Shown: piece by piece, positions 16,023 to 21,853 of the stretch
Layout: each line of letters starts with the position of its first letter
How positions within the stretch are numbered: position 1 is the first letter of the stretch
DNA from: Desulfobaccales bacterium
GTDB taxonomy: Bacteria; Desulfobacterota; Desulfobaccia; Desulfobaccales; 0-14-0-80-60-11
DNA: 64,000 nt
Reading direction: 5' to 3'
Assembly (NCBI GenBank): GCA_052147455.1
Contig: JBKQKO010000128.1
Span: 7,548 to 71,547 of the forward strand
The notes under the pieces: generated by a model
The model's input: only the letters and a program-made list of their open reading frames with translations
Database searches by the model: none
What the model was told of the DNA's origin: nothing
Position numbers and translations under genes: made by a program

Positions 16023-16768
16023 TTCCCCCGCCCTCTCCTCAAGCTCTCCTGTCCACCCCCTGGATGGGGCAGGGGATTGGGGGAAGGTTTTGATATTTTG
16101 GGCAGTTCGGGTATTTTTGGAATTTTTCGTATTTTTGGTATTTTTTGTAAGGGCAGGGACCGTCGGCCCCCGGCGTTTTCCCAAAACTCCCCCCAACAAC
16201 TATCCCGCCCCTCCCGCAAAAAATTCGCCGCCAGTTGCCGGCCGTAACCGGTGAGGAAGGACTCCGGGTGGAACTGGACCCCGTGCAGGGGATAGCGCCG
16301 GTGGCTCAGGGCCATGATCACTCCATCTTCACTGCGGGCGGTGACCTCCAGGTCAGGGGCGACGGAGGCCGCCATCAGAGAATGGTAGCGGGCCGCGGCA
16401 AACGGCGACGGCAGGCCGGCAAACAGGCCCCGCCCCTGGTGGCAAACCTGGGAGGTCTTGCCATGCACCGGGGCCGGGGCCCGGACCGTGACGCCGCCGA
16501 AGACCTCGTTGATGGCCTGGTGGCCCAGGCAGACCCCCAGGATGGGCAGGCGCCGATGAAAATGGGCGATCGCCGCCTTGCTGATCCCGGCTTGGGCTGG
16601 GGCCTTGGGGCCGGGGGAGATGCAGAGCCAGGCGGGCTTGAGGGCCTCGATCTCCGCCAGGGTCACCGCGTCGTGACGGAAGACCAGGACCTCCAGGTTA
16701 AACTCATAGAAGAGCTGCACCAGGTTGAAAGTGAAAGAATCGTAATTATCGATCATCACCAGGCGCAT
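16019..16768 (-). CDS. pabA: aminodeoxychorismate/anthranilate synthase component II (glutamine amidotransferase) with about 55-aa K/P-rich tail
   Basis: MRLVMIDNYDSFTFNLVQ, catalytic GVCLGHQ and FHPES. The homology pattern ends near ANFLRE, but the ORF continues through the 9-nt repeat (KIPKIRKIPKIPELPKI). Confidence 0.85.
16111..16146 (-). repeat. 9-nt tandem repeat x4 (sense CAAAAATAC type) at the pabA/pabB junction
   Basis: Plus strand reads GTATTTTTG GAATTTTTC GTATTTTTG GTATTTTTT. Confidence 0.9.
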
Positions 16769-16884
16769 TCCAGCCCCCATAAAAAAAAGCCGCCCCAGGA
16801 GTCTGGGTGGCTTTGGCCTGAACATAACTCTCAGCTTTTATATATGGAGATTAACCGGCGGTGTCAATGGTTTTCTCAGGCCGC

Positions 16885-17238
16885 TCAGGACCCGGAGTTG
16901 CCCCGCATGCGGATGAAATAGAGGGTGCCGAAGGCGCTGCCAGCCAGGCAGTGATGCTCTAGGTCGTAATGCGAAACATAGCCAGCGTCGTAGTCCTCAC
17001 CTTCCCCCAGACCCATGGCCCGGTCCATATCGCCGTCAGTGGCCATAACCAGGGCCTGGAGGAAGACGGCGCCGCCGTTGCGGGCCGTGGGATCGTGGGC
17101 GAACACCGCCCCGCAGTCGCAGAATCCCCCGGCAAAATCGTACCACTGACCCTCCTGCAACTGCACCGGGCGCAGCACCTCAACGCCGCAAAAAGGGCAG
17201 CGCACCTTGTGGGTTTGGTCTGAAAACAGCTTCGGCAT
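16885..17238 (-). CDS. hypothetical protein with N-terminal CPFC...CDC zinc-ribbon-like motif
   Basis: 117 aa from ATG 17238 (GAGG SD 8 nt upstream). It is the first gene of the pabABC string. No family recognised. Confidence 0.55.
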   Translation of the reverse strand: MPKLFSDQTHKVRCPFCGVEVLRPVQLQEGQWYDFAGGFCDCGAVFAHDPTARNGGAVFLQALVMATDGDMDRAMGLGEGEDYDAGYVSHYDLEHHCLAGSAFGTLYFIRMRGNSGS

Positions 17239-17504
17239 CAAATAACCTCGCAAAGCATTGCTGGGCCGGGATCACCTCGGAGAGCCGCCGCCGGAGAAAA
17301 TTGCCGTTGGTGGGGCGGGCCGCAGTAATCGCCAGTTACGGCAGGCAGAGCCGCCTGCCCCACCCGGCCGCCGCACTAACCAAATCCCGGTTCAGTCCAT
17401 TATCCACCATTTTTCCGTTTTCGGCAATTATCTCCACTTCTATTGACACTGCGGCTTCTTAGCCTTAAATTATTCCATACCTCGCAGTCAAAGGAGAGGA
17501 AACC

Positions 17505-17684
17505 ATGGCTGACAAGATTATATCCTTTTCGGTCCAGGAGCAGATGAAGCTCGAGGCCATCGTCATCGACAAAGACGGGGAAGAGGCCTTGCGCTACCTG
17601 GCGCAACTGGATGACCGGTTAAATCCGCATTACGGCCACGCCTGCGGGCCGAAGACGGCGGAAGGCCCCCCGGGGCGCGGCTGA
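17505..17684 (+). CDS. small protein (59 aa), paralog 1, GHACG motif
   Basis: AGGAGAGG SD then ATG. Sequence MADKIISFSVQEQMKLEAIVIDKDGEEALRYLAQLDDRLNPHYGHACGPKTAEGPPGRG. Below the 60-aa cutoff of the ORF track. Confidence 0.55.
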   Translation: MADKIISFSVQEQMKLEAIVIDKDGEEALRYLAQLDDRLNPHYGHACGPKTAEGPPGRG

Positions 17685-17811
17685 TAACCATTTTTTTTAA
17701 CGAGAAAAGCGACGGCTACAGGGGCTGGACCGGCCCCTGGGCGCCCGCCGCGGCACCGCCCCCCCGATAAACCGCCATCCGGGGAGGGTTCACCTGGCAG
17801 ATGAGGACATT

Positions 17812-17976
17812 ATGGCAGACAAAGAGATCGTCTTTTCGGATCAGGAGCAGCAGCAGATACAGGCCATAGTCATTGACAAGGACAAAGACGAAGCCGTCCG
17901 TTATTTAGCCCGCCTGATGGACCGCATCAAGGGGCAGGCCGGCCATGCTTGCGGCTTCAAGCCGGCCAGGGGGTAA
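17812..17976 (+). CDS. small protein (54 aa), paralog 2, GHACG motif
   Basis: GAGGA SD then ATG. Sequence MADKEIVFSDQEQQQIQAIVIDKDKDEAVRYLARLMDRIKGQAGHACGFKPARG. About 60% identical to the upstream small ORF at protein level, with diverged DNA. Confidence 0.55.
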   Translation: MADKEIVFSDQEQQQIQAIVIDKDKDEAVRYLARLMDRIKGQAGHACGFKPARG

Positions 17977-18005
17977 AGAAGGCGATAAGCGCTCCTGAAG
18001 GCGAG

Positions 18006-18641
18006 ATGGACCGGTTGGCCCTGGTGTCCGACACCCACGCCTACCGGGCCGGTATGCCCGCGTTGTTCGTCTTTCTCCGGCGCCAGGGCCTGCGTCACCT
18101 GGCCTGCCTGGGGGACTGCCAGCCGGAGCCTTTCCGGGATTGGCTGTCCCTGGACCCCGGCCACCGCCTTTATTGGGTCTATGACGTCTTTGGCCCCCAG
18201 TTGCCGGGAGCCACCGCCTGCGGGGTGGTCCTGGAATTGGAGGCCAGGGTCTTTCTGGCCCATACCCGGGCTCTGATCTGGACCCATTACGATGAGCGCA
18301 TCCGGGCTTACCGGCGCGGGGCCCATACCTGCCGCCCGCCCCTGCTGGCCTGCCATGGGCATACCCACGTGCCTTGCGTCACCCGCTTTGCCCCACCCTT
18401 CAGCCGCCTGCTTTACATCAATGACGCCATCCGGCCCGCGGAGTTCCAGCCGCGCCAGGCCTGCCTGAGCCTGGAGCCGGACACCGTTTACCTCATAGTC
18501 CCCGGGGCCTTCACCCTGGAGGAGGGGCGTCATTCCACCTTCAGTTTCGCGGTGCTGGACCTCCTTACCTCACGGCTGGCCATGGTTTCCCTGCGGGACC
18601 TGGCCGTCCTGGATTCCTTGCAGCTGTTCCCCCCGGAGTAA
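18006..18641 (+). CDS. metallophosphoesterase family protein
   Basis: MDRLALVSDTH (DxH), CLGD (GD) and ACHGHTHVP (GHTH) motifs. Start set at ATG 18006. Confidence 0.7.
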   Translation: MDRLALVSDTHAYRAGMPALFVFLRRQGLRHLACLGDCQPEPFRDWLSLDPGHRLYWVYDVFGPQLPGATACGVVLELEARVFLAHTRALIWTHYDERIRAYRRGAHTCRPPLLACHGHTHVPCVTRFAPPFSRLLYINDAIRPAEFQPRQACLSLEPDTVYLIVPGAFTLEEGRHSTFSFAVLDLLTSRLAMVSLRDLAVLDSLQLFPPE

Positions 18642-18689
18642 GTAACCACGCGGCAATAATTACATAATTTCGTAATTATAGTAACGTTT

Positions 18690-18880
18690 CCCCCCCCCTC
18701 ACCCTATCCTCTCTCTTCCCCGGTAGGGGCGGCGTCTCGCCGCCCGGGCGGGGAAACCCCGCCCCTACGGCGGGGAGAGAGGGAGCAAAAAGCCGGTTTC
18801 CCCAGGTTTACTGAGAGCGTCAATGGGATTGTATCTTTAGCCCCTCTCCCCCAATGGGGGACGACACCGGGTGAGGGGGA
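18690..18880. repeat. nested REP-like palindromes (two families)
   Basis: CCTCTCTCTTCCCCG-GTAGGGGCGGCGTCTCGCCGCCCGGGCGGGGAAACCCCGCCCCTAC-GGCGGGGAGAGAGGGAG, and CCCCTCTCCCCCAATGGGGGACGACACCGGGTGAGGGGG. Confidence 0.85.
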
Positions 18881-19051
18881 AATAAGCGTCTCTCTCTTTA
18901 TCTTTGGTTTCCGTGCGTCCTGGCGCCTAGGGAGGAAAGTTTCTCTAACTTATTATAACTCCTGGGAAAAATATTCGCGACGAGGCGCGCCAGTGGGGAG
19001 CAAAATAATTTGAGAGGAGATTAGATGCGGGGACGCCGGGGATAACCGGCA

Positions 19052-19597
19052 TTAGCGGGTCGAAGACAGAATATCCGGGATCAGGTACATCTTTCCGGCT
19101 TGCAGTTCCCCGGCTACCAGGGCGTCGGTGGGAAAGGCCAGGGGCTGGGGCGGCTGGGCCACTGGGAAAAAGGCCACTTCGGTGAGATCGTCTCCGGCCC
19201 TCAGGTCCCCTCCCACCACGCGGCCGGCAAACCAGAGGCCCACGGTGAGACGCTCCGGGTCGTGGAAATTGGAGTGGGCCGCCAGCAGTTCCCCCACTTC
19301 CACCGCCAGGCCCGTCTCCTCCTGGAACTCCCGGGCCGCGGCCTCCCTGACCTCTTCTCCCCACTCCAGGTAACCGCAGGGGATGCACCAGGCCCCCGGT
19401 GCTGGTCCCCCGGCCCGGCGCCCCCATAAAATCTGCTCCCCCCGGCGCACCACCACTGCCACCCCCACCGCGGGGTTGACGTACAAAACCCGGCGGCAGT
19501 CCCGGCAGGCCAGGCGGTCCCGTCCCCCCAGGGGACGCCTCTCCAATGGCCCGCCGCAGCAGGGGCAGAAGCGGAAAGAGGGTGGATTGCAGGACAT
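19052..19597 (-). CDS. NUDIX hydrolase with N-terminal zinc ribbon
   Basis: MSCNPPSFRFCPCCGG...CRDC, then NUDIX box GYLEWGEEVREAAAREFQEETGL. Only the last 181 codons of the 407-aa ORF are NUDIX. Confidence 0.85.
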   Translation of the reverse strand: MSCNPPSFRFCPCCGGPLERRPLGGRDRLACRDCRRVLYVNPAVGVAVVVRRGEQILWGRRAGGPAPGAWCIPCGYLEWGEEVREAAAREFQEETGLAVEVGELLAAHSNFHDPERLTVGLWFAGRVVGGDLRAGDDLTEVAFFPVAQPPQPLAFPTDALVAGELQAGKMYLIPDILSSTR

Positions 19598-19601
19598 GTT
19601 A

Positions 19602-19650
19602 GTTTCGAGTTTCGAGTTTCGAGTTTCGAGTTTTGAGTTTTGAGTTTTGG
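19602..19650 (-). repeat. heptanucleotide tandem array x7 (sense TCGAAAC x4, TCAAAAC x2, CCAAAAC) ending 4 nt upstream of the NUDIX ATG
   Basis: Plus strand reads GTTTCGA x4, GTTTTGA x2, GTTTTGG. Confidence 0.9.
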
Positions 19651-19696
19651 TGGTTAATTGATTTGTGGAGCCCTGGCATACCCCTTCTCTTTTCTT

Positions 19697-19731
19697 ATAA
19701 ACCGAAAACTGAAAACCCAAAACCGATAAAT
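19697..19731 (+). repeat. heptad array (ATAAACC GAAAACT GAAAACC CAAAACC GATAAAT) in the sense strand upstream of EF-G
   Basis: Read directly. It is roughly the inverted counterpart of the 19602-19650 array in the same divergent spacer. Confidence 0.8.
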
Positions 19732-19804
19732 GTCTTTTAAGGTTGAAAGTGCAGGCAAATTCATTTAAAAAAAATCGTGGCTCCAATTTTTTCGGAGAAG
19801 TCCC

Positions 19805-21853
19805 GTGTCCAACCCCAGGCTCATGGCCATCCGCAATATCGGCATCATCGCCCACATCGACGCTGGGAAGACTACTCTCACGGAGCGCATCCTTTATTAC
19901 ACCGGCCGCACCCACAAGATGGGGGAGGTGCATAACGGCGCCGCGGTCATGGACTGGATGCCCGAAGAGCAGGAACGCGGCATCACCATCACCGCGGCGG
20001 TGACCACCTGCCAGTGGAAGGGGTGCGTCATCAATATCATCGACACCCCGGGACATGTGGACTTCACCATGGAAGTGGAGCGCTCCCTCCGGGTTCTGGA
20101 CGGCGCCATCGGGGTCTTCGACGCGGTGAGCGGGGTGGAGCCCCAGTCGGAAACCGTCTGGCACCAGGCCGACAGATACCGGGTGCCGAAATTGGCCTTC
20201 ATCAACAAGATGGACCGCCTGGGCGCCAACTTCTGGGCCGCGGTGGCCTCCTTGAAGGAGAAACTGGGGGCCCATCCCCTGGTGCTCACCATCCCCTGGG
20301 GGGAAGAAGACCAGTTCCAGGGGGTCATCGATCTTCTGGCCATGAAGGCCCTGAAATGGCGGCAGGAAACCCTGGGGGTAGCCTTCGAGGAACTAAAGAT
20401 CCCCCCGGACCAGGAGGCCGCGGCAGCCGCGGCCCGGGAAGCCCTGGTGGAGGCCCTGGCGGAGGTGGACGACGAAGTGATGGAGGCCTATCTGGCAGAA
20501 CGCCGGCTGCCCCCGGAGGAGATCAAGGCCGGGGTGCACCGCGCCACCCTGGCCCTCAAGGGGGTGCCCACCTACTGCGGCTCCGCCCTGCGCAACAAAG
20601 GGGTCCAACCCCTGCTGGATGGCATCAAGGATTTCCTGCCCAATCCCATGGAAGTGCCTGCCATCCTGGGGCAAAACCCCAAAACCGGGGCATCCGAACC
20701 GCGGCCGGCCCGGGACGACGGCCCCCTGGCTGCCCTGGCCTTCAAGATCATGGTGGACCAAAACCAGCGCCTCACCTATGTGCGCCTCTATTCCGGCACC
20801 CTGAAGGTGGGCCAGGAGGTCTTTAACCCGGTCAAAGGCGTCTCCGAAAAGGTGGCCCGCATCCTGTGGATGCACGCCAACAAGCGAGAACCCCTGGAGG
20901 AGGCCCACGCCGGCAGCATCGTCGCCCTCCTGGGCCTGAAGGCCACCACCACCGGAGACACCCTGTGCAGCCGGGACCGCCCCATCGTCCTGGAGCCCAT
21001 CTCCTCCTACCTGCCGGTAATTTCCCTGGCCATCGAACCGCTGACCCGGGACGATCAGGAGAAGCTGGAACCAGCCCTGGCCCGGGTGTCCGAAGAGGAT
21101 CCCAGCCTGCGCATCCATACCGATGAAGACACCGGCCAGACCCTGCTCTCCGGCATGGGAGAACTGCACCTGGAAGTGATTATCCACCGCCTGCAGCGGG
21201 AGTTCCACGCCCAGGTTCGGGCCGGCCGCCCCCAGGTGGTCTATCGGGAAACCATCGCCCTGGCAGCCGAAGAGTCCGGGACCTTCGACCGGGAATTGGC
21301 AGGCAAACACCACTTCGCCGAAGTGCGCCTGAGCCTCTCCCCCCGTCCCCGGGGCTCAGGCAATGCCTTCGTTTCCCTGCTGGCCGCGGAACACCCGGCC
21401 CAGGGCTGGGTTGCGGTCATTGGCCGGGCGGTGCAGGAAGCCCTGGAAGGGGGGGTGGTCTACGGCCACCCCGGGGTGGATGTGGCCGTGGCCCTGGCCG
21501 GGGCCGCGATCAAAGAGGGCCAGGCCTCGGAGATGGCCTTCCGCATCGCCGCCACGGCCGCCCTGAGGCAAGGGTTTAATCAGGCCCAGCCCCAACTGCT
21601 GGAACCCATCATGAAGGTGGAGATCATCACCCCGGAAGAGTTCACCGGGGAGGTCGTGGGAGACTTCGCGGCCCGCAAGGGCAAAGTGGAACAGCTCCTC
21701 GCCAAGGGGCCGGTGCGCCTCATCACCGGCGCCGCCCCCCTGGCGGAGATGTTCGGCTATGCCACCGCCCTGCGCTCCCTGACCCAGGGGCGGGGCACCT
21801 TTACCCTGCAGTTCGACCATTACGGCTCCGTGGAGCGGCGGGAGGAGAAGTGA
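19805..21853 (+). CDS. fusA: elongation factor G family GTPase (stand-alone paralog, GTG start)
   Basis: G motifs [14 protein letters not shown] and NKMD. 682 aa. It is not in an rpsL-rpsG context. Confidence 0.9.

Follow-up and report, generated by a model that had tools for sequence, protein, structure and literature searches.

Two tandem genes, each encoding a protein of fewer than 60 residues, lie upstream of a metallophosphoesterase (MPE) gene in a Desulfobaccales genome (GenBank assembly GCA_052147455.1, contig JBKQKO010000128.1; the window is the whole 64,000-nucleotide stretch that was analyzed). The products, small proteins A (ORF1) and B (ORF2), come from genuine conserved genes under purifying selection, and are ancient paralogues in a small-protein family that is unnamed, absent from curated libraries, and uncharacterized. 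Each is predicted to join a folded amino-terminal domain of about 40 residues, with a D-x-D turn, to a flexible His-x-Cys-Gly tail. The genes that surround distant relatives have a common denominator: metal or metalloid handling together with thiol and oxidative-stress chemistry, with no single fixed partner. As a tentative model, A and B may form a heterodimer whose paired His-Cys tails create a metal- or redox-sensitive site acting on the co-transcribed MPE.

The original prediction, made from the nucleotide sequence, described two tandem ORFs of 59 and 54 residues that begin MADK, are preceded by Shine-Dalgarno sites, share about 60% identity in their amino-terminal regions, and both contain GHACG. 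The ORFs read exactly as described, GHACG is present in A and in B, and BLASTP aligns the two proteins ungapped with 34 identities over 54 residues (63%; E = 8e-23). Both are already called as genes in GenBank, as hypothetical proteins only. Their DNA is just 65% identical, with nonsynonymous divergence (pN) of 0.25 and synonymous divergence (pS) of 0.72; synonymous sites are thus near saturation. The prediction had taken this DNA divergence as a sign of purifying selection on the peptide, and comparison with orthologues bears it out. Median dN/dS (pairwise Nei-Gojobori) is 0.18 for the first copy, over 44 distinct orthologues, and 0.19-0.30 for the second copy. Entropy at third codon positions exceeds that at positions 1 and 2 by a factor of 1.4-2.7.

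The search for homologues and their neighbors that the prediction had proposed was run with a profile built from A and B. It returned 265 homologues at E<=0.01, all about 52-60 residues long; those carrying a source name are annotated "hypothetical protein" and come mostly from Desulfobaccales metagenome-assembled genomes (MAGs). With each GTDB species represented by a single genome, a scan placed the locus in 71 species-level genomes, all of them MAGs, labeled Desulfobaccales, Desulfobacca, or with generic deltaproteobacterial names. The A-B tandem is found in about 60 of these 71 loci, with constant gene order. Coding status rests on these homologues and genomes, the dN/dS values, a conserved promoter and Shine-Dalgarno site, and the GenBank annotation.

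Among 117 aligned sequences, residues F8, I21, D22, D24, C47, and G48 are invariant, and H45, A46, and K50 are conserved in at least 90%. The cysteine of GHACG (C47), whose invariance the prediction had suggested checking, is thus fixed throughout this alignment. First-copy proteins always end in HACGPK followed by AAEGPPGxG or VV, whereas second-copy proteins end in H[AV]CG followed by FKPARG, PKPAK, TGPIK, FRPFK, or PKRTQ; in the window, the A tail ends in YGHACGPKTAEGPPGRG and the B tail in AGHACGFKPARG. Overall the tail motif H-x-C-G-[PF]-K varies very little. The prediction had seen a conserved amino-terminal region followed by a short, Cys-containing, variable carboxyl terminus: this architecture stands, but the variability does not, because the tail is conserved within the lineage.

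The AlphaFold2 model, made with the 117-sequence alignment, has a mean predicted local distance difference test (pLDDT) score of 79. Residues 1-40 score 86-97 and are modeled as an extended segment (1-9) and two helices (about 10-22 and 25-39). From about residue 41 onward the tail, which bears the H-x-C-G motif, scores below 60 and is predicted to be disordered. Net charge, counted from sequence, is about -4 for the A amino-terminal domain and about -1 for that of B. Two readings of the IDKDG segment were considered. An EF-hand or a HAD "DxDG" motif is ruled out by the two-residue helix-helix turn in the model, and a HAD enzyme also by the length of A and B, which are far too short.

The original prediction could not place the family, and neither could broader searches. 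A and B have no match in Pfam, NCBIfam, PADLOC, or PHROGs; searches with two sets of diverse family members (43 and 10) found nothing significant in Pfam or NCBIfam; sequence and profile searches of the PDB with three alignments found no relatives, including no ribbon-helix-helix (RHH) protein; and Foldseek comparison of the AlphaFold2 model with the PDB and BFVD gave no match with E <2. A thioredoxin or glutaredoxin fold does not fit proteins of 54-59 residues that have two helices, a motif in a disordered tail, and no Pfam hit. The literature searched contained no description of the family. The family is small: an exhaustive hidden Markov model search of 1.84 billion cluster representatives yielded just 72 matches at E<=0.001. 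The broad search gave 714 clusters (90% identity) at the same threshold. The 90% cluster that contains B also lists unrelated porin-like proteins of 499-502 residues (P0372, P0375, and P0376); their presence there looks like an artefact of how the protein collection was clustered.

The transcription and translation signals of the locus are summarized in Table 1. By sequence, the predicted promoter before ORF1 is a near-consensus sigma-70 element with a strong ribosome-binding site, matching at 10 of 12 positions in the promoter scan. An alignment of 64 distinct orthologous upstream regions shows a conserved CTATTGACAC-N17-CTTAAATT block and a conserved AAAGGAG; it revealed neither palindromes nor repeats conserved near the promoter. 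ORF2 has its own Shine-Dalgarno-like site, GAGGA, at 17803-17807. The A-B spacer ranges from 27 to 169 nt among 30 A/B pairs typable by tail motif, so it is not a conserved element, and a scan of the locus found no terminator-like site between A, B, and the MPE gene. The 29-nt gap between the ORF2 stop and the MPE start codon is as originally noted; the corresponding gap is mostly 9-40 nt in other loci, and 74 of 82 loci also encode a homologue of the MPE. These spacings and this linkage argue for an operon.

Table 1. Features of the small-protein locus (window coordinates)
Feature	Position	Strand	Details
Conserved hypothetical protein, 117 aa	16885..17238	-	CPFC...CxCG (Cys4 zinc-ribbon-like), DPTARNGGAV block; GenBank MGO9622555.1
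Promoter-like site for the divergent zinc-ribbon gene	17399..17427	-	TTGCCG-17-GATAAT
Predicted sigma-70-type promoter, A/B/phosphoesterase operon	17443..17471	+	TTGACA (17443-17448), 17-nt spacer, TAAATT (17466-17471)
Shine-Dalgarno site	17490..17499	+	AAAGGAGAGG; ends 5 nt 5' of the ORF1 ATG
ORF1, small protein A, 59 aa	17505..17684	+	GenBank MGO9622556.1 (ACLPT6_14260), hypothetical protein
A-B spacer, 127 nt	17685..17811	+	GC-rich, without T-tract terminator
ORF2, small protein B, 54 aa, paralogue of A	17812..17976	+	GenBank MGO9622557.1 (ACLPT6_14265), hypothetical
Metallophosphoesterase, 211 aa, operon gene 3	18006..18641	+	Pfam PF12850 Metallophos_2

The third gene was originally named a metallophosphoesterase, and its product does match Metallophos_2 above threshold (E = 2.2e-8; 34.7 bits, with a cut-off of 27). 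Searches found no NCBIfam equivalog and, at E<=1, no sequence relative in the PDB. Across 66 distinct orthologues, four motifs (SDTH, CLGDC, AHTR, and GHTH) are retained; they correspond to the D-x-H, G-D, H, and G-H-x-H motifs of YfcE/MJ0936-type metallophosphoesterases. Unlike those enzymes, the MPE has a conserved L-Y-W-x-Y-D at the position expected for motif III, G-N-H/C-D/E, in an alignment made by eye and without a structure. The protein thus seems to keep four of the five canonical metal motifs, whereas motif III, the second-metal motif, lacks the Asn ligand and looks non-canonical. The MPE is also unusually Cys-rich.

Gene order is conserved well beyond the predicted operon: a divergent zinc-ribbon gene, A, B, MPE, a convergent NUDIX gene, and an EF-G paralogue. 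The pabA and pabB genes usually lie on the zinc-ribbon side, and ndk is also among the housekeeping neighbors. The locus is chromosomal, syntenic among housekeeping genes across the order, and not mobile. By tblastn the zinc-ribbon gene is found in 69 of 82 loci, always upstream of and divergent from the small-protein pair, and the DPTARNGGAV block is invariant in its orthologues. In the alignment of upstream regions, a TTATCC block at 17399-17404, the complement of GATAA in its promoter-like site, shows conservation above 90%. The 117-residue protein has no match in Pfam, NCBIfam, PADLOC, PHROGs, or the PDB, and the MPE likewise has none in PADLOC or PHROGs. The zinc-ribbon-like protein may be the real partner of the pair.

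Distant relatives keep the amino-terminal domain, with the consensus ..I.L...E...LE.I..D.D..EAL.FL.., in which D22 and D24 are invariant; these members start with a CopG-like "..TITLSEQE.." pattern. Their tails are subfamily-specific. Some contain cysteine ([HR]ACGP..V, RCGIEKLRK, GHC[KR]PP, LPHCVP.., and VPCKSLE..) and others do not (GM[RK]SHLD, ENASKMKREGI, LDSGKSTGIMT, and REASAPH). Diverged members also occur as pairs in one operon, the GMRSHLD type with the HCRP type at nine loci and a further pair at locus L145, and two natural proteins (P0159 and P0167) are fusions of two modules.

To survey what accompanies these relatives, neighbors at 96 further loci (L078-L173) were clustered, and the cluster representatives were annotated with Pfam. 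Upstream neighbors include rubrerythrin (14 loci), a DGC domain protein (seven), ArsP_1 permease (four), FUR (three), a low-molecular-weight phosphatase of ArsC type (three), a cation-efflux (CDF) transporter (two), and a hybrid-cluster/CODH-type protein. Downstream are found Redoxin/AhpC (seven loci); an ArsM-like methyltransferase with a Cys-rich amino terminus (six); a cluster of six with MerB, thioredoxin, and NosL domains joined in its representative; Zincin_1 (five); metallo-beta-lactamase (three); ApbE (three); MtrA-like proteins (two); a PF04060 Fe-S domain (two); and thioredoxins, ferritin, and ArsR. Other relatives adjoin RACo, glutaredoxin/thioredoxin reductase, TusA/DsrE, or IscS/NifU.

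Two of these settings deserve a closer description. In seven loci (L135, L137, L140, L142, L143, L147, and L157), a Cys-free subfamily with the tail ENASKMKREGI occurs in arsenic-type operons, where its gene sits between those for the ArsP_1 permease and the ArsM-like methyltransferase with gaps of 1-9 nt. In three Desulfobacca sp. MAGs (L048, L051, and L077), a second A/B pair lies directly upstream of full-length RACo and hemC, and one small gene remains at the primary locus. RACo is the reductive activator of corrinoid Fe-S protein.

These findings agree with small and abundant proteins, probably dimeric, in which the folded amino-terminal domain is a constant scaffold and the short tail the functional, context-specific part. 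In the model introduced above, A and B would be transcribed together with the downstream YfcE-type metallophosphoesterase from the conserved sigma-70 promoter. The amino-terminal domains would pair, A with B, an idea that draws on the order-wide tandems, the diverged pairs in other subfamilies, and the two-module fusions. Pairing would join the two His-Cys tails into a shared site able to bind a metal, hold an Fe-S cluster, or form a disulfide. The complex could then serve as a metal- or redox-responsive regulatory subunit, or as a metal-delivering subunit, for the phosphoesterase. The metal and redox theme among the neighbors of distant relatives speaks for the model, as does the apparent lack of the Asn ligand in motif III of the MPE.

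Several observations weigh against this model. The structure predicted for the natural fusion P0167, which was to stand in for the dimer, scored a pLDDT of 48, too low for use. Some subfamily tails (ENASKMKREGI and LDSGKSTGIMT) have neither Cys nor His, so a Cys/His site is not a universal function of the family. The A/B pair also occurs without MPE, beside RACo in the three Desulfobacca sp. loci and again in L074. Moreover, the neighbors of distant relatives are heterogeneous, and a rule that the target is the next gene is therefore not general. A wider and improbable generalization would treat the whole family as modular mini-sensors, with a 40-residue dimerization domain and swappable "ligand tails": A and B would bridge a [2Fe-2S] cluster or a metal and switch or metallate the MPE, an enzyme short of one canonical metal ligand, and other subfamilies would serve peroxide, arsenic, mercury, and zinc systems.

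The main rival is that A and B are RHH-like transcription factors. In this doubtful but serious alternative, an A/B heterodimer, paired through the amino-terminal strand and two helices, would bind an operator at the promoter, and the Cys/His tail would sense metal or redox state or bind a partner; the pair would then be a minimal NikR- or antitoxin-like repressor of its own operon. CopG, ParD, and the NikR amino-terminal domain resemble A and B in several ways. RHH proteins also have about 45-60 residues, with an extended amino-terminal segment and then two helices, the topology of the model; their folded domain likewise precedes a functional or disordered carboxyl-terminal part; and the TITLSEQE-type start of distant members is theirs as well. 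The small-protein gene often stands first in its operon, as RHH genes do, and in regulons usually under small metal sensors. Several sub-threshold matches all point toward RHH proteins: Pfam ParD (E about 0.05, three members), NCBIfam NikR (residues 2-55, E = 0.076), a ParD RHH domain as the sole PDB match in Foldseek (E = 6.9), and DUF1778 and CopG among viral fold matches in BFVD (E >2).

Yet not one of these matches is significant. When the family profile was compared with ParD, NikR, and CopG sequences in hhalign, probabilities were 1-15%; with the amino-terminal-domain profile A7, just the first 18-19 residues aligned, and the second helix did not. RHH membership is therefore unproven. 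Features of the domain itself also argue against this reading. The helix-helix turn is an acidic D-x-D rather than the RHH G-x-S/T/N, the domains are acidic by sequence count, and the putative outward-facing strand residues in A and B are I/E/V/S, not K/R/T/N. No operator repeat was found near the promoter, and for some family members a dedicated regulator (FUR or ArsR) is co-transcribed.

A second alternative, which we consider unlikely, makes A and B free carriers or buffers of thiols or metals: the Cys arm would shuttle persulfide, metal, or reducing equivalents, and the phosphoesterase would be a mere neighbor. Cys-arm carriers (the DsrC/TusE arm) and monothiol glutaredoxin-BolA [2Fe-2S] heterodimers are functional analogies only. 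Like them, A and B may present one reactive Cys, plus a His, on a flexible segment, and a ligand site bridged by a heterodimer would be possible, as in Cys-His-bridged sensor dimers. The CGP and CGF of the tails resemble the CGPC and CGFS redox motifs. A single invariant Cys in a disordered tail suits a carrier, as do the thiol, sulfur-transfer, and redox neighbors of relatives (TusA, DsrE, IscS/NifU, glutaredoxin, thioredoxin, thioredoxin reductase, peroxiredoxin, rubrerythrin, RACo, and Fe-S proteins), and the strong consensus promoter suggests abundance. However, A and B show neither the fold of thioredoxin, DsrC, or BolA nor homology to them, and some subfamilies are Cys-free, including the member directly downstream of TusA/DsrE (LDSGKSTGIMT). 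The locus in the window contains no sulfur-transfer or redox enzyme, and the close linkage of the pair to MPE and the zinc-ribbon gene throughout the order points to a partner specific to the locus.

It is decidedly improbable that A and B are antitoxin-like inhibitors, in which the amino-terminal domain dimerizes and the tail plugs the active site of the co-encoded metallohydrolase and places its Cys thiolate on the catalytic metal. An analogue is the PRCGxPD cysteine switch of matrix metalloprotease pro-domains. The folded domain and disordered tail are compatible with such a plug, and a metallohydrolase gene lies immediately downstream in four subfamilies (Metallophos_2, Zincin_1, Lactamase_B, and a weak match to Zn_dep_PLPC). 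But many other subfamilies precede non-hydrolases (peroxiredoxin, ArsM, ApbE, GAF, MtrA, and RACo), the MPE is not a known toxin, and the PADLOC and PHROGs searches were without matches. By toxin family, mobile context, and defence model, the chromosomal, housekeeping-linked A/B locus does not qualify as a type II toxin-antitoxin or defence module.

The original prediction also likened the pair to precursor peptides, or else to small regulatory or adaptor proteins. The second likeness is the best remaining reading; the first has fared poorly. As precursors of ribosomally synthesized and post-translationally modified peptides (RiPPs), A and B would carry a conserved leader and a short Cys-containing core modified by a neighboring enzyme. 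Small size, tandem duplication, and a shared amino-terminal region with carboxyl termini that diverge between subfamilies do recall Nif11/NHLP-type precursors, and a B12-radical SAM gene lies near one locus (L005). That gene is confined to L005/L006, though, and no modifying enzyme, protease, or exporter is conserved; the neighbors are housekeeping genes (pabAB, NUDIX, EF-G, and ndk) or, in relatives, stress operons. The tail is conserved across the whole order rather than hypervariable as a core would be, and the supposed leader is predicted to be a stable folded domain (pLDDT >90). For want of a conserved maturation enzyme, with a conserved tail and a folded "leader", the RiPP reading is unsupported and very unlikely.

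Finally, the two ORFs are short, and at 57% GC the genome has long antisense ORFs, among them minus-strand ORFs at 17400-17606 and 17901-18533. The idea that A and B are chance ORFs, with the minus-strand frames or nothing as the real product, is nonetheless refuted by hundreds of homologues, by low dN/dS for both copies, by the conserved promoter and Shine-Dalgarno site, and by the antisense frames themselves, which are open in just 32 and 45 of 65 distinct orthologues, respectively, and so are disrupted in between one-third and one-half of these sequences; the original prediction had rightly seen no support for these frames.

The surroundings of the locus hold further elements. Between the convergent MPE and NUDIX genes is a highly structured, GC-rich intergenic element (18686-18900) in which inverted repeats are nested; CCTCTCTCTTCCCCG/CGGCGGGGAGAGAGG is one example, and a repeat with 28-nt arms at 18718-18773 is another. 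Its predicted RNA fold has an energy of -112 kcal/mol (z = -4.8 relative to shuffles), and it occurs once in the window. It has no Rfam family: a scan of 16800-19900 gave noise alone. The NUDIX/EF-G intergenic region contains a near-perfect tandem array of the heptamer AGTTTCG (6.7 copies, 97% matches, 19601-19647) and a second heptamer array at 19699-19726. At the pabA/pabB junction, a 9-bp tandem repeat (TTTTGGTAT, 6.9 copies, 16088-16149) translates to KIPKI/TKNTKN-like low-complexity stretches in overlapping ORF calls.

Together, these results define a small-protein family that is new but belongs to a broadly familiar type, that of small regulatory or metal-associated proteins whose tail is functional. 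Although no new mechanism is demonstrated, two ORFs of fewer than 60 codons have led to an unnamed family without a Pfam, NCBIfam, or PDB relative, which merits description at the level of a domain of unknown function, and a false lead for natural-product mining has been removed. Its genes are consistently found within operons for metal, metalloid, and thiol-redox stress in anaerobic bacteria of Thermodesulfobacteriota type. The entry point is concrete: one Cys, one His, and one enzyme gene in a predicted operon. From there, the family could reveal small-protein tuning of metalloenzymes, or redox and metal sensing, in organisms that are hard to study genetically.

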